A program made the translations under genes and the position numbers. From assembly GCA_040773245.1 (NCBI GenBank), contig JAXGWO010000004.1:4290-68289 (forward strand): a stretch of 64,000 nucleotides of DNA. The letters are read 5' to 3'. Positions 8,202 through 62,668 of the stretch are shown in pieces. The notes below the pieces were generated by a model. It searched no databases and had not been told where the DNA came from. It worked only from the letters and a program-made list of their open reading frames with translations. This stretch comes from PVC group bacterium. GTDB taxonomy: Bacteria > Auribacterota > Erginobacteria > Erginobacterales > Erginobacteraceae. Each line of letters opens with the position of its first letter. Positions within the stretch are counted from its first letter, which is position 1.

Positions 8202-9557
8202 ATGGTCAAAAGAATCATCGTCGGGGAGTCGGGAGGGCCGACCCCGGTCATCGACTGGGAAGTCGCCGGGGTGGTGGACGCCGCCCAGAAAGCCGGGGTC
8301 GAGGTTTACGGGATGTTCAACGGCCTGGAGGGGCTGCTCAACGCCAACATCGAGGGGAATATCGTCGATCTCTCGATGATCAACGCGATGTCCTTTACCT
8401 TCACCGGTCCCGGGGCGGGCCTGCGGACCACCCGGATCAAGCCCAAGGCCGAGCAGTACCGGTATATGGCCCGCCACCTGGACGCCCTCGGCATCGACGG
8501 GGTGGTCTACATCGGCGGCAACGACAGCGCCGACCAGCTGCTCGGGTTGACCGCCGAGTGCGAGGTCAAGGCCATCCACGCCATCAAGACGGTGGACAAC
8601 GACCTCCCGGTCACCCACCACTGCCCCGGGTACGGTTCGGCCGCCCTCTACAACGCGATCGCCCTCAAGAACGTCCACAGCGACTTCTCCTCCTACCGGG
8701 TCTGGGGCAATTACCGGGTTGACGGGAAGATCGTCGCCGCCCCCAGCATCATCCCGGTGGTCATCTACCAGGTGATGGGGCGCAAGGCCGGGTGGTTGGC
8801 CCAGGGGACCGCCTTCGCCAAGGTCGACCCCCGGGGCGATCTCCGTCCGGATTATCCGCCGCACATCATCCTCAGCAAAGAGATCCTCTTCGACCCGGAG
8901 GAGTTCCTGGCCGAACTGGAGAGGGTCATCACCAAAAGGAACGAGGCGGTGATCGTGGTCCAGGAGGACCTGACCGACAAGAAGACCGGGAAGGCCCTGG
9001 CCGAGGTTTATTCCGACACGGTGATCACCGATCCCCACGGCAACATCCAGCACGGCCGGGCGGGATCGTTCGCCCCCTGCCTCTTCCTGGCCGGGCTGAT
9101 CAAGAAGGAGCTGAAGATCCCCGGCCTGCTGGGGCAGATCAAGGAGGCCGTCCTCGTCCCCCAGCACATCCAGCGGTCCAACCGGGTCTCCCGGCAGGAC
9201 GCCTGCGAGGCCTATATGGTCGGCTATGCCGCCGTCCGGGCGATGCTCGACGGCGCCGACCGGAAGTCGGTAATCCTGGAGAAGGTCAAGACCCGGGTCA
9301 CCACCGGCCTGACCGACCTGGCCAACATCGCCGCTCGGGAGAGAAAAGTTCCCCTCGAGTACATCGACGGCTACCGGGGCCCGACCCAGGAGTTCATCGA
9401 CGAGTTCATCTACACCATCGGCGGCGCGGGGGCGATCCCCCATTACTCCTACCGGAAGTTCATCAACGTTCCCGTCCCCGAGGCGATCAAGAAAGCGCCG
9501 TACCTTAAGGGAGAGGACGAGTACAAGTGGCCCCTGAAGAGGGACATCATCCAGTAA
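8202..9557 (+). CDS. pfk: 6-phosphofructokinase family protein, likely pyrophosphate-dependent.
   Basis: GGNDS, KTVDNDLP and MGRKAGWLA PFK motifs, 451 aa. Confidence 0.75.
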   Translation: MVKRIIVGESGGPTPVIDWEVAGVVDAAQKAGVEVYGMFNGLEGLLNANIEGNIVDLSMINAMSFTFTGPGAGLRTTRIKPKAEQYRYMARHLDALGIDGVVYIGGNDSADQLLGLTAECEVKAIHAIKTVDNDLPVTHHCPGYGSAALYNAIALKNVHSDFSSYRVWGNYRVDGKIVAAPSIIPVVIYQVMGRKAGWLAQGTAFAKVDPRGDLRPDYPPHIILSKEILFDPEEFLAELERVITKRNEAVIVVQEDLTDKKTGKALAEVYSDTVITDPHGNIQHGRAGSFAPCLFLAGLIKKELKIPGLLGQIKEAVLVPQHIQRSNRVSRQDACEAYMVGYAAVRAMLDGADRKSVILEKVKTRVTTGLTDLANIAARERKVPLEYIDGYRGPTQEFIDEFIYTIGGAGAIPHYSYRKFINVPVPEAIKKAPYLKGEDEYKWPLKRDIIQ

Positions 9558-39374: not shown

Positions 39375-39405
39375 GTTGACAAGCTCCGGGAGGTTGCTAT
39401 ATGAT
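39375..39405 (+). promoter_or_regulatory. Sigma-70-type promoter for tRNA-Val and the downstream genes.
   Basis: TTGACA at 39375-39380, a 17-bp spacer, then TATATG/TATGAT. Located about 15 nt upstream of the tRNA 5' end. Confidence 0.5.
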
Positions 39406-39422
39406 GGACCGGCTTCAAGATC

Positions 39423-39495
39423 GGGCGATTAGCTCAGCGGGAGAGCACCTGGATCACAACCAGGGGGTCACTGGTTCAATCCCAGTATCGCCCAT
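39423..39495 (+). tRNA. tRNA-Val (anticodon CAC).
   Basis: GGGCGATTAGCTCAGCGGGAGAGC D-arm, anticodon stem CCTGG/CCAGG with loop ATCACAA, T-arm GGTTCAATCC, acceptor GGGCGAT/ATCGCCC. Confidence 0.8.
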
Positions 39496-39514
39496 AATCA
39501 GGGGACAAGCATCG

Positions 39515-40228
39515 ATGAGGGAAGAGATCAAGGCGCTGCTGGAGATCCAGGACCTGGATATGGAGATCCGGGAACTGAAGGCTCGCTCCCGGGCGATCGA
39601 AGAGGGCCTCGCTGCCATCCGCGCCGATATCGAGCGGGACGAGCGGTCGATCAGGGAGGAGAAGGAGAAGAGTCTCTCCGCCCGGGTCCGCAGCAAGGAA
39701 CTGGAACTGGAGGTCGAAGAGAAGAAGAGCCAGATCGTCAAATACGAAGGACAGCTCTTCAAGGTCAAGAACAACAAGGAGTACACCGATCTGATCCACG
39801 AGATCGAGGGTTTCAAGGCCGACATCAGGGTGCTGGAAGACCGGATACTGGGGCTGATGGAAGAGGGGGAAGGGGAGCGGAACCTGATGGAAGAAGCCCA
39901 GTCCAACCTGGAGCGGGACCGCCAGCATTACCGGGAAGAAGAGGAAAAGGCCGGGGGGGAAACGAGCCGGATTGAGAGCTCGGTCAGGGAGAAAGAACGG
40001 CTTCGTACGGAAAAGGCGGAGAGGATCAATCCGGAACTGAGGGAACGTTACGAGATCATCTTCGCCCGGAAGCCCGACCGGGCGGTGACGCCGGTCCGTA
40101 GCGGTGTCTGCACCGGGTGCAATATGGAGCTGACCGCCCAGGTTCTCAATGACCTGGCCCGGGAAGAGATGGTCTGCCACTGTGAAAACTGCGGGCGCTT
40201 TATTTTCTTTCCCGAGGAGGAAGCTTAA
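39515..40228 (+). CDS. Zinc-ribbon coiled-coil protein (COG1579-like).
   Basis: Long coiled coil followed by C-terminal CTGCNMEL...CHCENCGRFIF Cys4. The track ORF 39401 starts inside the tRNA; ATG at 39515. Confidence 0.75.
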   Translation: MREEIKALLEIQDLDMEIRELKARSRAIEEGLAAIRADIERDERSIREEKEKSLSARVRSKELELEVEEKKSQIVKYEGQLFKVKNNKEYTDLIHEIEGFKADIRVLEDRILGLMEEGEGERNLMEEAQSNLERDRQHYREEEEKAGGETSRIESSVREKERLRTEKAERINPELRERYEIIFARKPDRAVTPVRSGVCTGCNMELTAQVLNDLAREEMVCHCENCGRFIFFPEEEA

Positions 40229-42538: not shown

Positions 42539-42928
42539 ATGAACGAGAATAATTTCGCCTGCCCCGGGCGGCTGGAGATCGGCCGCCTCTGTATCCAGGG
42601 TCTCTGGACCGCGCTGCTGGGCGGGGTCCTGCTCGGGATGTCCTACCTCTGGATTTACTCGCAGGTCATCCAGACCAGCAACGCCCTGGAAATTCACGAA
42701 AACCGCGCCGCCTACCTGGCGGATCGGGCCCTGACCCTGCAGAGCCAGCTGGAAGCGCTGCAGTCGCCCCACTCCATCGCCCGGATGCTGCGGGACCGGG
42801 AGATCGCCCTGGCCGACCCCGATCCCCGCCAGATCGTCCGGGTGCGGCGGGAGGAGTTCCCGGAGGTTTCGCGTCCGCCCCGCGCGGCCGCGCCCGGGGA
42901 CCTGGTTATCCTGAGCATCGCCCGGTAA
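42539..42928 (+). CDS. ftsL: Cell division protein FtsL-like, bitopic with a coiled coil.
   Basis: Single TM helix plus coiled coil, 129 aa, at the conserved position between rsmH and ftsI. Confidence 0.7.
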   Translation: MNENNFACPGRLEIGRLCIQGLWTALLGGVLLGMSYLWIYSQVIQTSNALEIHENRAAYLADRALTLQSQLEALQSPHSIARMLRDREIALADPDPRQIVRVRREEFPEVSRPPRAAAPGDLVILSIAR

Positions 42929-58027: not shown

Positions 58028-59188
58028 ATGAGCAAGCAGGAGGAACCAGGCAAGTTAGCCCTCTGGGGGGTCGGCGATCAGGGGATCCGGGTCATCTCCT
58101 CCCTGCCGGAAGAGGTCCGGCGGCGGGTCCGGCCGGCGGCGGTCGACTCCGACCTCCAGTCCCTGATCTGCGGGCCGACCGTGCAGAAGATCAGGATCGG
58201 GTCCAAGTCCGGCCCCGCCAACGGTCCGGGCGGGGATCCGGAAAAACTGCTGAAGGCATTCCGGGAGAGCGAGGAGAAGATCCGGGAGAAACTCTCCGAG
58301 GCCCAGATCCTGCTCGTGGTCGGCGGACTCGGGGGAGGGGTGGGGAGCGTCCTGATCCCCGCCCTCTGCCGCTGCGCCCGGCAGCGCAAGATCATCACCC
58401 TTGTCTTCGCCACCCGCCCTTTTGCCTTTGAGGGGAAGAAGAGAAGCCGGATCTACCAGCAGGCGAGAAAGGAGATCGAGGAGAGCGGGGTCGGGATGGC
58501 CTGTTTCTCCCTCGACCGGCTGGTCGGCCGGATCGAGGAAGAAATACCCCACCAGGAGGTCTTCCATCGCTGCGACCGGATCCTGAGGGACGCGGTGGAG
58601 TGCGCCGTCGCCTACCTCTTGTCCCCGCCCGACCAGGGCGGCGATCGGTCCTCCCTGGGGGACGTTTTCGCCGCCTCCGGGGAGGCGGTGATGGGCGTGG
58701 AAGAGGCGGCCGGGCCGGAGGAATTGGTGAAGTCGGCCAAGGCGGCGCTTTCCTCCCTGTCGCTCTCCGCCGCCGAACTGGCCGGGGTCCGGGGGGTGCT
58801 GGTCCAGATCGACGGACCGGAAGCGATCCCCTTCCGCCGGGTGCAGGAGGCGATCGGTTCGATCTCCCGGCTGCTCGGCGAAGAGACCGACCTGCTTTAC
58901 ACCGTCACCCGGCGGGAAGAGCCCGGGTGGAAGATCAGTTTCCGCCTTTTGGCCGGGGGGATCGCCTCCGGCCCGCCCCGCGGCGCGGGCTCCCCGATCC
59001 CGGTGACCCTGAACCGCGACGGCCACCGCCCCCGGCAGGAGAAGATGGATTTCGACAAGTTCACCCGGGGAGTGTTCGCCCCGACCGAGCCGACCTCCCG
59101 GGACGGCGAGGACCTGGATATCCCGACCTTCATCCGGCAGGGCGTCCAGCTGGAAGGGGAAGGAAAAGACGCCCGGTCGGTGCCATGA
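58028..59188 (+). CDS. ftsZ: Divergent FtsZ homologue with degenerate GTP-binding and catalytic motifs but a conserved C-terminal peptide.
   Basis: Aligns along its length with FtsZ (AVDSDLQSL, TRPFAFEGKKR, GVRGVLVQI, C-terminal DLDIPTFIR). The G1 box reads GVGDQGIRV instead of GVGGGGGNA, and the T4 loop reads GGLGGGVGS instead of GGGTGTG. Confidence 0.8.
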   Translation: MSKQEEPGKLALWGVGDQGIRVISSLPEEVRRRVRPAAVDSDLQSLICGPTVQKIRIGSKSGPANGPGGDPEKLLKAFRESEEKIREKLSEAQILLVVGGLGGGVGSVLIPALCRCARQRKIITLVFATRPFAFEGKKRSRIYQQARKEIEESGVGMACFSLDRLVGRIEEEIPHQEVFHRCDRILRDAVECAVAYLLSPPDQGGDRSSLGDVFAASGEAVMGVEEAAGPEELVKSAKAALSSLSLSAAELAGVRGVLVQIDGPEAIPFRRVQEAIGSISRLLGEETDLLYTVTRREEPGWKISFRLLAGGIASGPPRGAGSPIPVTLNRDGHRPRQEKMDFDKFTRGVFAPTEPTSRDGEDLDIPTFIRQGVQLEGEGKDARSVP

Positions 59189-59904
59189 TCCTGGTCAAAG
59201 CCGGCAAGATCCTGCTCGGGATTCTCCTCCTCCCGGCCTGCGTGGCGGCCACGGCGGCCTTCGGCCGGGAAGTCTTCCCGGTCCTCTTCCGGGAGATCTG
59301 GTTTCTCGCCGGCCTGTTCGCCTACCTGCTCCTCCTGGGAATCTTCCAGCAGCCGATCCGGACCTACATCTTCGGCCACGAGCTGACCCACGTCCTCTGG
59401 GTCTGGCTCTTCGGCGGGCAGGTCAAGGGTTTCAAGGCGGCGGCGCGGGGGGGCGAGGTGAGGACCACCCGCTCGAATTTCCTGATCTTCCTCTCCCCCT
59501 ATTTCTTCCCGCTCTACAGCGCCCTGGCGATCGGGATCTACCTCCTCCTCGGCCTGATCTGGGAGCTGCCCCCGGCGTCGCGCGGCTACCTGAGTTTCGC
59601 CCTCGGCTTCACCTGGGCCTTCCACCTGACCCTGACCATCTACGTGATCATCCAGGGGCAGCCCGACATCTGGGCGGCGGGACGGGTCTTCTCCTTCCCC
59701 TTCATCTACCTGGTGAACGTGGTGATCCTGGCCGCCCTGATCATCTTCGTCACCCCGCGATCCCCCACCCGCTTTTTCTTCGCCTCGCTCTGGGAACAGA
59801 CCCGCGAAGATTACCTCTCGATCTGGAACGATGGGCCCCAGTTCTGCCGCCGGCACTACCAGCTCTTCCGGGACAAGGCTTCCGCATTCCTGGCCGGAAG
59901 CTGA
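59185..59904 (+). CDS. Polytopic membrane protein with an intramembrane HExxH motif; putative zinc metalloprotease, DUF3267/M50-like.
   Basis: ATG overlaps the ftsZ stop. About 6 TM helices and FGHELTHVLW within a TM segment. Confidence 0.65.
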   Translation: MILVKAGKILLGILLLPACVAATAAFGREVFPVLFREIWFLAGLFAYLLLLGIFQQPIRTYIFGHELTHVLWVWLFGGQVKGFKAAARGGEVRTTRSNFLIFLSPYFFPLYSALAIGIYLLLGLIWELPPASRGYLSFALGFTWAFHLTLTIYVIIQGQPDIWAAGRVFSFPFIYLVNVVILAALIIFVTPRSPTRFFFASLWEQTREDYLSIWNDGPQFCRRHYQLFRDKASAFLAGS

Positions 59905-60036
59905 ACCGCCGTCCCTTCCCCGGCGATGATTCCCGGGAAAATACTATCTCCGGGGGACGGTCTTCTCTTATAATCCCTCTTCCACCGGCCTGATCCCCGG
60001 CCGGGGACAGGAAATTATATTCAGGAGGAAGAAGAT

Positions 60037-60540
60037 ATGAAGATCAAGTCGATGGCGGTTGTTGCCGCTCTGGGAGCGGTTCTCTTCGTTCCCGTCCCCC
60101 GGGCGGAAGGGCGGGACCTGGTTTCCATCCGGAGGGTCCGGACCATACCCAACCCGGCCCCGGATAAGGTGCCGGGGGAAGAAGTCCTGGAGGTGACCTT
60201 CTCGCTCGATACCCCGGGTTGGGCGGGAGGGATGGGCTGGTGCCTGAAGTACTACGGCCCGGATAAGGGACTGCGGGGAGAGGAGACGGAGGCCTACATC
60301 GATCCGGCGAGGAACCCGATGTCCCGGATCCGCGATCGCCGCTTCAAGGGCCAGACCGTCTTCACCCTGCTCTTCCCCCTGCGGGAAGGAGCGGAATACA
60401 CGGTCCTGCTTCTGGGCAACGTAATCAGCAGTTCGGTCATCCTCCATCCCTACACCGCCCTGCTGGAGGATTTCAACGTTCCGACCGGCGAACTGAACGC
60501 CGCCCTCGCCCGCTCCCGCCTGACCGTGCTGGAGAACTGA
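60037..60540 (+). CDS. Hypothetical secreted protein.
   Basis: Signal peptide MKIKSMAVVAALGAVLFVPVPRA and a GGAGG RBS. No family recognised. Confidence 0.55.
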   Translation: MKIKSMAVVAALGAVLFVPVPRAEGRDLVSIRRVRTIPNPAPDKVPGEEVLEVTFSLDTPGWAGGMGWCLKYYGPDKGLRGEETEAYIDPARNPMSRIRDRRFKGQTVFTLLFPLREGAEYTVLLLGNVISSSVILHPYTALLEDFNVPTGELNAALARSRLTVLEN

Positions 60541-60814: not shown

Positions 60815-62668
60815 ATGAATTTTATCGAAGAGATCGGAAACCGGATCCTGGTCGGGGACGGGGCGATGGGGACCTACCTCCTCGCCCGGGGGGTCTCTCC
60901 CGGCCAGAATTTCGAGGCTCTCTGTCTGACCGACCCGGAGCTGATCCGGAGCGTCCACCGGGAGTACGTGGCCGCCGGGGCCGACCTAATCGAGACCAAC
61001 ACCTTCGGGGCCAACCGGATCCGTCTCCGCCCGGCCGGTTACGGGCGCCAGGCGGCCAGGATCAACCGGGAGGCGGCCCAACTCGCCCGGTCGGCCGCCG
61101 GGGACGCGGTCCTGGTCGCCGGGGCGGTGGGGATGATCCCGGCTCCGGACCGGGAACCGCCCGCCCCGGGCGGTCCCGCCGGGGAGGAACTGCTGGAGGC
61201 CTACCGGGAGCAGATCGCGGCCCTGGCCGAGGGCGGGGTGGACCTGATCATCCTGGAGACTTTCGAGGAGTGGGAGAACCTCTCCCTTGCCCTCCGGGCG
61301 GCCCGGGAAGCTTCGCCGCTCCCGGTGGTCGCCCAGATGGCCCATTCCAACCGGGGGATCTCCATCTTCGGGGCCACGGCCGAGGAGTGCTGCCGCCGGG
61401 CGCTGGATTCCGGGGCGGCGGTCTTCGGCAGCAACTGCGGCGGGGGCTTCGCTTCGGTGGAGGCGGTCCTGCGGGGGGCGGCCCGGGTGGAGGGAGCGAC
61501 CCTTTCGGCCTTCCCCAACGCCGGGGTCCCGGAGCTGGTCCAGGGGAGGATAATCTATCCCTCCGGTCCGGATTACTTCGCCGGCAAGTGCCGGGAGCTG
61601 ATCGATCTCGGCGCCCGGCTGATCGGCGGCTGCTGCGGTACCAGCCCCCGCCACATCCGCGCCCTGCGCCGGACCCTTGACGGGAGGGTTTCCCCGCCGG
61701 TTCGGCCCCGTCCGCGGCTCGCCGCCGCCCCGGCGCCGGCCCTCCGGCTTTCGGTCGAGGGGGGATTCCTCGCCGGACTGCGGGGAGACCGTCTCCCGAT
61801 CATCGTCGAGATCGATCCCCCGACGGCTCCTGACCTGGAAAAGGTGGTGGAGGGGGCGGTGGCGGTGAAGAACGCCGGGGCGGACGCGGTCTCGATGGCC
61901 GAGAACCCCCTGGCCGCCCTCCGGGTCTCGCCGGTCTCCGCCGGGGCCGAGGTCCGTCGCCGGGCGGGGATCCAGGTCATACCCCACCTGACCGCGCGGG
62001 ATCACAGCGTCCTCGGTCTCCAGTCGCTTTTGCTGGGGGCGGCGGTCTCCGGGCTGGAGGCGGTCCTGGCGGTGACCGGCGACCCGGCGGGGAAGGGGGA
62101 CGGGACCGGGGAACGGGGGGTCTTCGCCGTCAACAGCGTCCACCTGGCCGGCCTGGCCGACCAGCTCAACCGGGGCCACCTCCTCTCGGGGCAGGACCTG
62201 GCCCGGCCGACCGACCTCTCGATCGGGGTGGCCTTCAACGCCAACGCCGCCAACCTCCCGGCCGAGGCCGACCGGCTGCGGAAGAAGGCGGCGGCCGGCG
62301 CCCGCTTCGCGATGACCCAGCCGGTCTTCTCCGCCGCCCGGGCGCGGGAAGTGATCGCCGCCGGCGAGGGGATCGGGGTCAGGATCTTCATCGGGGTCTA
62401 TCCCCTCCTCTCGCTGAGAAACGCCGACTTTATGGCCAACGAGGTCCCCGGGATTACCATCCCGGGGGAGGTCCGGAAACGGCTGGAAGATTCCGGAGAC
62501 CGGGCCGCCCAGCGCCGGGCCGGTTTGGAGATTGCCTGGGAACTGATCGAGGAGGTCCGGGTGGAGATCGACGGACTCTACCTGGTCAGCCCCCTCAACA
62601 TCTGGTCCCTCCCCCGGGAACTGGTCCGGAGGGTCCGGGCCGCGGAAAAAACTAAAAGCCTTGACTGA
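60815..62668 (+). CDS. Bifunctional homocysteine S-methyltransferase / 5,10-methylenetetrahydrofolate reductase.
   Basis: N-terminal Hcy-binding pterin-type barrel (VGDGAMGT, Cys ligands GSNCGGG...GGCCGT) and a C-terminal MetF-like domain. Confidence 0.85.
   Translation: MNFIEEIGNRILVGDGAMGTYLLARGVSPGQNFEALCLTDPELIRSVHREYVAAGADLIETNTFGANRIRLRPAGYGRQAARINREAAQLARSAAGDAVLVAGAVGMIPAPDREPPAPGGPAGEELLEAYREQIAALAEGGVDLIILETFEEWENLSLALRAAREASPLPVVAQMAHSNRGISIFGATAEECCRRALDSGAAVFGSNCGGGFASVEAVLRGAARVEGATLSAFPNAGVPELVQGRIIYPSGPDYFAGKCRELIDLGARLIGGCCGTSPRHIRALRRTLDGRVSPPVRPRPRLAAAPAPALRLSVEGGFLAGLRGDRLPIIVEIDPPTAPDLEKVVEGAVAVKNAGADAVSMAENPLAALRVSPVSAGAEVRRRAGIQVIPHLTARDHSVLGLQSLLLGAAVSGLEAVLAVTGDPAGKGDGTGERGVFAVNSVHLAGLADQLNRGHLLSGQDLARPTDLSIGVAFNANAANLPAEADRLRKKAAAGARFAMTQPVFSAARAREVIAAGEGIGVRIFIGVYPLLSLRNADFMANEVPGITIPGEVRKRLEDSGDRAAQRRAGLEIAWELIEEVRVEIDGLYLVSPLNIWSLPRELVRRVRAAEKTKSLD

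Follow-up and report, generated by a model that had tools for sequence, protein, structure and literature searches.

A candidate site-2 protease-like membrane protein encoded directly after ftsZ in an Auribacterota-like lineage

Results

The gene after ftsZ encodes a putative divergent site-2 protease

In a 64,000-nucleotide stretch of contig JAXGWO010000004.1, from a bacterium of the Planctomycetes-Verrucomicrobia-Chlamydiae (PVC) group, the last gene of the division and cell wall (dcw) cluster encodes a polytopic membrane protein that carries an HExxH motif and whose start codon overlaps the stop codon of ftsZ. The whole stretch is called the window below. The source contigs derive from the runs SRR27544747, SRR27544753, SRR27544757 and SRR27544761. 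The protein is best read as a divergent member of the site-2 protease (S2P) clan, on the side of the M50B-like and DUF3267 families, and it is probably an active intramembrane zinc protease, with its expression linked in this lineage to the dcw operon. The S2P-like assignment is supported by convergent lines of evidence, each of which is weak alone.

The open reading frame (ORF) ends with a TGA at 59902-59904. Its ATG (59185-59187) shares the four nucleotides ATGA (59185-59188) with the TGA of ftsZ (59186-59188), in the context GGTGCC-ATG-A-TCC, which agrees with the overlap described in the original prediction. The start codon is supported by the fact that homologues begin at the same residue (MILIKAGK, MIFVKAGK, VIVVKTGK). 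A spurious ORF was considered and rejected, both the family and the start position being conserved.

Homologues were numerous. A word-indexed search of a database of 5.8 billion proteins returned 537 of them, and an exhaustive profile search retrieved 2373 clusters (50% identity) at E ≤ 1e-3, including 519 at E ≤ 1e-30. All named matches are labelled 'hypothetical protein'; the closest named relative, at 83% identity, belongs to Candidatus Erginobacter occultus (phylum Candidatus Auribacterota, PVC group). When 30 relatives were compared with Pfam, 24 matched PF13398 (Peptidase_M50B), 13 matched PF11667 (DUF3267) and one matched PF02163 (M50). The gathering cut-off of PF13398 (26 bits) was passed by three relatives of the Verrucomicrobia type (P0105, 27.2 bits; P0087, 27.1 bits; P0120, 26.5 bits), and the ftsZ-linked relatives scored at most 15.7 bits (P0015; 11.7 bits for P0032) or gave no match. 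The PF13398 matches span approximately positions 2-110 of the 201 in the profile, which correspond to the transmembrane segment before the HExxH motif, the HExxH helix, a hairpin and the next transmembrane segment; the C-terminal half of the profile was matched in none of the 30 relatives. With PF11667, the best relative (P0038, 19.2 bits) remained below the cut-off of 27.1 bits, the matches spanning positions 2-102 of 108. PF13398 and PF02163 describe related folds, since genuine SpoIVFB proteins often match both.

Structural comparison pointed in the same direction. A Foldseek search of 350,542 PDB chains with the full AlphaFold model placed SpoIVFB (8vjl and 8vjm) and mjS2P (3b4r) in the top three positions, with E-values of 0.04-0.2 and template modeling scores (TM-scores) of 0.26-0.29. 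A separate model of the core (residues 36-192), meant to sharpen the fold match, put these three structures at ranks 1, 3 and 5, though TMq rose only to 0.34-0.37 and the E-values (0.5-2) were worse. We also aligned the family with a 25-sequence SpoIVFB alignment by using hhalign, which paired residues 60-104 with SpoIVFB residues 38-89 (P = 0.0015). The aligned part, which was the same with a single SpoIVFB sequence, extends from the HExxH helix through the hairpin into the beginning of the next helix; HELTH is paired with the HELGH of SpoIVFB, and the hairpin (residues 80-94) with the SpoIVFB hairpin (residues 57-73).

Predicted architecture and conserved residues

The AlphaFold model, made with a 30-sequence alignment, had a predicted local distance difference test score (pLDDT) of 89 and a predicted TM-score (pTM) of 0.82. 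Kyte-Doolittle windows and the secondary structure of the model together delimit five strongly hydrophobic helices (approximately residues 8-28, 38-53, 99-125, 132-157 and 167-189). The model runs from two hydrophobic helices through the HExxH helix, a beta-hairpin, a kinked helix (99-125) and the helix that holds H147 (132-157) to a short helix starting at D161, the last transmembrane segment (167-189) and an amphipathic C-terminal helix.

The HELTH motif sits on the predicted helix 58-75, between the second transmembrane segment and the hairpin. It had been described as lying inside a transmembrane helix. The motif itself was found at residues 65-69, but the helix that carries it is amphipathic and less hydrophobic than the others, with a mean Kyte-Doolittle value of 0.68 that falls below a simple hydropathy threshold. 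A placement within the membrane is nevertheless reasonable, because the active-site helices of S2Ps are amphipathic.

The predicted hairpin follows directly on the HExxH helix, and its two strands are present in two independent AlphaFold models. The segment 76-99 carries five lysine or arginine residues. On the basis of the positive-inside rule and of the likeness to S2Ps, the basic hairpin would be cytoplasmic, which would bring H65, H69 and D161 near the cytoplasmic face of the membrane and leave both termini in the periplasm; this predicted topology is self-consistent.

Conservation was counted among 247 near-full-length family members. H65, E66 and H69 of HELTH were invariant in all 247, and a chance occurrence of the HExxH motif was therefore rejected. 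In the family-specific motif on the kinked helix, P105, Y106 and P109 were found in 247/247 sequences, L103 in 246/247, N98 in 96% and Y111 in 98%. G90 and G141 were nearly invariant. In the distal Q159-P160-D161 segment, D161 was present in 247/247 and Q159 in 245/247 members; two ftsZ-linked loci, L012 and L014, have a glutamate in place of D161 (QAE and QTE). The distance from the HExxH motif to the acidic residue is 92 residues in the window protein (H69-D161) and 90 in SpoIVFB (H47-D137). The C-terminal helix is about 20 residues longer than in ftsZ-unlinked relatives, an extension confined to the first 13 aligned sequences, which make up the ftsZ-linked clade.

The gene directly follows ftsZ in one lineage

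We scanned one genome per GTDB species and kept the best 80 of at least 579 loci with relatives of the window protein. Neighbouring division genes were searched for with phmmer, with FtsZ, FtsA, FtsQ, Ddl and MurC of the window as queries. In all 10 species representatives of an Auribacterota-like clade (L005-L014; 44-84% identity), ftsZ lies directly 5' of the HExxH gene, and the same was found in two more metagenome contexts (L089 and L091). The other 70 of the best 80 loci, which belong to Verrucomicrobiota, Nitrospirota, Omnitrophota, Kiritimatiellia and Victivallales, had neither ftsZ nor ftsA within 8 kb. A canonical FtsZ would have been detected there, because phmmer found the canonical FtsZ of L012 and L014 at approximately 1e-37 and FtsZ proteins of the PDB at 1e-34. 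The adjacency thus holds among relatives that are close or moderately distant, to as low as 44% identity, but not in the rest of a much larger family. As a whole, the family is not division-specific, and we read the link to ftsZ as a lineage-specific operon arrangement.

A crude neighbour-joining tree resolved the linked genes into one main clade and a separate pair, L012 and L014. These two loci come from unclassified metagenome-assembled genomes, encode an FtsZ with the canonical GGGTGTG motif and still have the HExxH gene 3' of ftsZ (7983-8666 in L012 and 7983-8669 in L014). The next gene (8763-9446 and 8854-9432, respectively) is lipoprotein-like, with about 190 residues in L014 and 227 as listed in L012, and is followed by an acyl-CoA synthetase-like gene. 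As L012 and L014 differ from the main clade in branch, in FtsZ and in downstream genes, they argue most strongly for a linkage that goes beyond inherited gene order. They also indicate that the adjacency is independent of an atypical FtsZ.

At 24-26 of the unlinked loci (L015-L084; Chthoniobacterales and other Verrucomicrobiota), the family gene lies on the same strand and 3' of the genes for elongation factor P (EF-P) and a KpsF/GutQ-like SIS-CBS isomerase, often with the arginyl-tRNA synthetase gene (argS) downstream. This neighbourhood seems to reflect synteny of the lineage rather than to hint at function. Nothing recurrent was seen in three unlinked contexts annotated with Pfam.

The junction with ftsZ suggests co-transcription in the window species

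In the window, the HExxH gene is preceded by a complete dcw cluster that runs from mraW to ftsZ. Overlaps also occur elsewhere in this cluster (17 nt between murG and murC, 11 nt between murC and ddl), and the 4-nt ATGA overlap is therefore ordinary operon architecture. No Shine-Dalgarno-like motif was found 5-10 nt 5' of the start codon, the nearest candidate, GGAAGG, being more than 20 nt away, and a promoter scan detected no promoter-like site on the + strand between ftsQ and the HExxH gene. The overlap and the lack of an upstream promoter-like site suggest that the gene is co-transcribed with ftsZ. Given this overlap and the lack of a Shine-Dalgarno motif of its own, the gene is probably translated by termination-reinitiation, and to regard it as the last gene of the dcw operon, made in this way, would be reasonable. 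A hairpin located just 3' of the gene (-25.3 kcal/mol, z = -1.74; 12 of 200 shuffles as good) has a U-rich tail and was not called in a consensus scan.

The coupling to ftsZ claimed from the window sequence is compatible with the overlap in this species, but is not conserved: the relatives have spacers (Table 1; ftsZ is 190 nt upstream in L091), so that translational coupling would concern the window species only. The spacers of L010 (7910-8000) and L011 (7892-8000) consist largely of tandem CTGATCA/TGATAA-like heptamer repeats.

The FtsZ next door and the protein encoded downstream

The original prediction had called the neighbouring FtsZ atypical, and this was borne out. It is a real but divergent FtsZ, which scored 62 bits with Pfam Tubulin, 26 bits with FtsZ_C and 129.6 bits with TIGR00065, compared with a cut-off of 295.2 bits for the latter, and which matched FtsZ proteins of the PDB at 1e-34. 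Its GTP motifs are degenerate, with a T1 loop reading GVGDQG and a G-box reading GGLGGGVGS instead of GGGTGTG, and it keeps the C-terminal peptide DLDIPTFIR. The protein found at the ftsZ position in a sister lineage (356 residues) has no Pfam match on record, and about 22 residues are missing from it around the T3 loop; its G-box reads LGGGMAA and its C-terminus is still DLDIPTFIR.

The gene that follows the HExxH gene encodes a 167-residue orphan protein that had no match in Pfam or NCBIfam. With 13 clusters in the database of 5.8 billion proteins, it is limited to this lineage. Throughout the main clade its gene lies 3' of the HExxH gene; this holds for the window as well as for L005, L006, L008, L010, L013, L090 and L091, the homologues in L090 (1306-1812) and L091 (5702-6280) being 37-38% identical. 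In L091 it overlaps the stop codon of the HExxH gene by 4 nt; in the window the two genes are separated by a 132-nt gap, with a GGAGG belonging to the downstream gene and the weak hairpin in between. We considered the lipoprotein-like genes of L012 and L014 as possible homologues, but rejected them because no relation was detectable. As a possible partner or substrate, the 167-residue protein is no weaker a candidate than a divisome protein, since it is co-conserved downstream and overlaps the HExxH gene in L091, where ftsZ is 190 nt away.

Discussion

A putative protease at the end of the dcw operon

If the protein is, as we think probable, an intramembrane protease, a zinc ion would be bound close to the cytoplasmic face by D161 and by the two histidines of the amphipathic membrane helix (H65 and H69), possibly with the help of H147, and E66 would activate a water molecule. 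The basic beta-hairpin would dock an extended strand of the substrate, as in RseP and SpoIVFB, and a single-pass membrane protein would be cut within or beside its transmembrane segment. The protease gene would have become the last of the dcw operon in the Auribacterota-like lineage, and in the window species probable termination-reinitiation would make the dose of the protease follow FtsZ synthesis. The two most plausible substrates are the 167-residue protein, which would be exported, and a bitopic divisome protein, i.e. the FtsL-like protein, FtsQ or FtsI. The protein may play a part in cell division.

Several results weigh against this view. As to the protein, it did not itself match any Pfam or NCBIfam family at E ≤ 1, and its membership of any curated family is not demonstrable. 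The original prediction had proposed an M50/S2P-like or DUF3267-type protease, which agrees with the Pfam matches of the relatives, the top-ranking S2P folds and the hhalign alignment, but not with this lack of a match for the window protein. A sequence search of the PDB with the family profile gave no match at E ≤ 10, and the fold matches are non-significant, with TM-scores of 0.26-0.37 and root-mean-square deviations of 8-15 Å. The probability returned by hhalign was 17%, for the N-terminal half of the core only. The canonical NxxPxxxxDG/LDG motif, which contains the third zinc ligand, is absent from the window protein; Q159-x-D161 is found at a spacing equivalent to that of the LDG region, in a different sequence context and outside the hhalign alignment. 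As to the link with ftsZ, neither ftsZ nor ftsA was nearby at any of the 62 of the 70 unlinked loci that have at least 1.9 kb of upstream flank (0/62), and all-against-all clustering of the ORFs within 4 kb at the 70 loci detected no recurrent functional partner outside the clade beyond housekeeping synteny. The 4-nt overlap is unique to the window species among the relatives compared. Furthermore, in relatives with at least 56% identity, the region is syntenic through the homocysteine S-methyltransferase-methylenetetrahydrofolate reductase fusion and the glyceraldehyde-3-phosphate dehydrogenase gene, and part of the adjacency may for this reason be inherited gene order rather than selected linkage.

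Alternative explanations

We considered the possibility that the protein is a dedicated regulator of the divisome, which would cleave a bitopic division protein (FtsL-like, FtsQ or FtsI) and thereby control divisome stability. In Bacillus subtilis, RasP cleaves FtsL, which puts a divisome protein under the control of an S2P, and this RasP/FtsL case in Bacillus is, to our knowledge, still the main example of intramembrane proteolysis acting on divisome proteins. RasP-like regulation may here compensate for the degenerate FtsZ of the lineage. Besides the RasP-FtsL precedent, this proposal draws on the adjacency to ftsZ, kept across a deep clade that includes L012 and L014, whose downstream genes all differ and which the tree places on a separate branch. 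Within the distal dcw cluster, ftsZ and the HExxH gene are the most tightly joined pair, bitopic candidates are encoded in the same cluster, and the linked clade has the extended C-terminal helix. Yet this helix may be periplasmic according to the tentative topology, the substrate proposal has no direct evidence behind it, and the spacers of 90-500 nt in L008-L012 and L014 permit independent expression. The adjacency is moreover seen with canonical and degenerate FtsZ alike, and most of the family (Verrucomicrobiota, Nitrospirota) is unlinked to division genes. We regard a dedicated regulatory role as unlikely.

The most far-reaching version of our proposal appears quite improbable to us. Under it, Auribacterota and the neighbouring unclassified lineage would have built the protease into the 3' end of the dcw cluster as a genuine divisome component. 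It would cut a bitopic division protein, or the 167-residue protein serving as a division factor in the periplasm, in concert with FtsZ synthesis and in a lineage where FtsZ is losing the canonical motifs for GTP binding. If true, it would represent a layer of proteolytic control of cytokinesis not described before in the PVC group.

The ftsZ neighbourhood could also be incidental. In that case, the protease would cut the N-terminal hydrophobic segment of the 167-residue protein, thus releasing or maturing its exported domain. This would fit with the conservation of the 167-residue gene 3' of the HExxH gene in the window and at seven loci, down to 37-38% identity, with the 4-nt overlap in L091, and with the hydrophobic N-terminus of this lineage-restricted orphan. 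At the same position, L012 and L014 carry another small gene of lipoprotein-like type; the proteins it encodes are, however, not detectably related to the 167-residue protein, and most members of the HExxH family have no such neighbour. TmcP, an enzyme of the DUF3267 family, offers a precedent, as it removes the leader from a membrane-embedded precursor (2026 preprint, PMC13252029), and S2Ps that clear signal peptides provide an analogy. Yet the hydrophobic N-terminus may be a plain Sec signal peptide cut by signal peptidase I, and in the window the gap, the separate GGAGG and the hairpin split the two genes. We consider such a processing partnership a rather doubtful explanation.

It is very unlikely that the protein is a non-proteolytic membrane protein, such as a membrane tether or an assembly factor, whose histidines, glutamate and aspartate would serve transport, sensing or scaffolding by binding a metal. 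In favour of this reading, neither fold nor sequence searches gave a significant match to a solved protease, the LDG motif is missing and ZIP metal transporters were among the low-ranking Foldseek matches; but these transporters had probabilities of at most 0.08, the full HExxH motif including the catalytic glutamate is invariant, and the hairpin, the S2P-like spacing and the Pfam links are typical of zincin proteases.

Comparison with known proteases

Compared with the canonical S2Ps (SpoIVFB, RseP, RasP and mjS2P), the protein putatively shares the HExxH helix followed by a basic beta-hairpin, and it has an acidic residue about 90 residues further on, at the end of the second following transmembrane segment. 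It differs from them by lacking not only NxxPxxxxDG/LDG but also any PDZ or CBS domain, and by TM-scores below 0.4. Peptidase_M50B (PF13398) is the best-scoring curated family for the relatives; this likeness does not extend to a match for the window protein, nor beyond 15.7 bits in the ftsZ-linked clade.

TmcP, from the TMcin pathway for a ribosomally made and post-translationally modified peptide (RiPP), is an S2P-clan intramembrane leader peptidase in which mutagenesis (H68A, D158A) showed both residues to be needed for cleavage (PMC13252029). Its spacing from H72 to D158 is 86 residues, and 88% of DUF3267 proteins have four transmembrane helices (PMC13252029). The window family resembles these proteins in being small and polytopic, in its HExxH, carried by a membrane helix, and in an aspartate found approximately 86-92 residues further on. 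In contrast, two transmembrane helices precede its HExxH helix and the total is about six, invariant PYFFPxY and H147 motifs are peculiar to it, and it lies outside any RiPP cluster.

The original prediction had also pointed to SpoIIGA of Bacillus as a membrane protease of a different class encoded after ftsZ. SpoIIGA is an aspartic protease of unrelated fold, which acts on pro-sigma-E in the activation of a sporulation sigma factor. The likeness is positional only, a membrane protease gene near the 3' side of ftsZ, and it does not extend to direct adjacency, as bpr sits between ftsZ and spoIIGA in B. subtilis 168.

Significance

The family is unannotated, and biochemically it would be another small S2P-clan protease, with relatives that already touch PF13398. 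In the literature, we found no description of its linkage to ftsZ, no paper discussing division in Auribacterota and none combining 'dcw cluster' with 'site-2 protease'; the essential-genome paper on Verrucomicrobium spinosum does not mention the family. If the protein is an active protease, H65, E66, H69 and D161 represent a testable catalytic hypothesis for a large unannotated family (about 2400 clusters at 50% identity, mostly from Verrucomicrobiota, Nitrospirota and other PVC-related phyla), and the linkage to the dcw end beside a degenerate FtsZ is a lead into the division of an uncultivated PVC phylum. If the link is inherited gene order only, the finding amounts to a commonplace hypothetical membrane protease encoded last in an operon.

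Other features of the window

Features of the HExxH gene and its surroundings are listed in Table 1. The FtsL-like ORF of the dcw cluster has one transmembrane segment followed by a coiled-coil-like region, and its label rests on this layout and on its position.

Table 1. Coordinates of the HExxH gene, its motifs and neighbouring features, with the ftsZ junctions of relatives
Feature	Locus	Position	Strand	Details
HExxH gene	window	59185-59904	+	239 residues
HELTH (H65, E66, H69), putative zinc-binding/catalytic motif	window	59377-59391	+	residues 65-69; 247/247
Predicted basic beta-hairpin	window	59422-59466	+	residues 80-94; strands 80-86 and 89-94
N98-x4-L103-x-P105-Y106-F-F-P109-x-Y111	window	59476-59517	+	family-specific; kinked helix after hairpin
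H147, candidate extra or alternative metal ligand	window	59623-59625	+	transmembrane helix 132-157; 246/247
Q159-P160-D161, distal acidic residue, putative third zinc ligand	window	59659-59667	+	
C-terminal amphipathic helix (AlphaFold)	window	59764-59892	+	residues 194-236
Possible weak intrinsic terminator	window	59908-59972	+	10-bp stem, then CUUCUCUUAUA
167-residue orphan gene	window	60037-60540	+	hydrophobic N-terminus (signal peptide or signal anchor)
mraW	window	from 41560		dcw cluster, upstream of HExxH gene
FtsL-like ORF	window	42539-42928		129 residues; where ftsL usually lies, between mraW and ftsI
ftsI	window	from 43043		dcw cluster
murE, murF, mraY, murD, ftsW, murG	window	between ftsI and murC		dcw cluster
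murC	window	from 53330		dcw cluster; ddl next
ftsQ	window	from 55904		dcw cluster
ftsA	window	from 56777		dcw cluster
ftsZ, divergent	window	58028-59188	+	directly 5' of HExxH gene
Further degenerate ftsZ-position gene	L089	3886-4956		
Further degenerate ftsZ-position gene	L013	81-1166		
ftsZ/HExxH gene junction	window			ATGA overlap
ftsZ/HExxH gene junction	L005-L007			5 nt
ftsZ/HExxH gene junction	L013			22 nt
ftsZ/HExxH gene junction	L010, L011			~90-110 nt
ftsZ/HExxH gene junction	L008, L009, L012, L014			~280-510 nt

Two other genes of the window were noted. Encoded at 39401-40228, about 1.3 kb upstream of mraW, is a protein that combines a CT398-like coiled-coil hairpin with a C4 zinc ribbon. 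The methyltransferase-reductase fusion mentioned above is a single ORF of 617 residues (60815-62668), in which a homocysteine S-methyltransferase is fused to a methylenetetrahydrofolate reductase domain, and it is syntenic in L005, L006 and L008.

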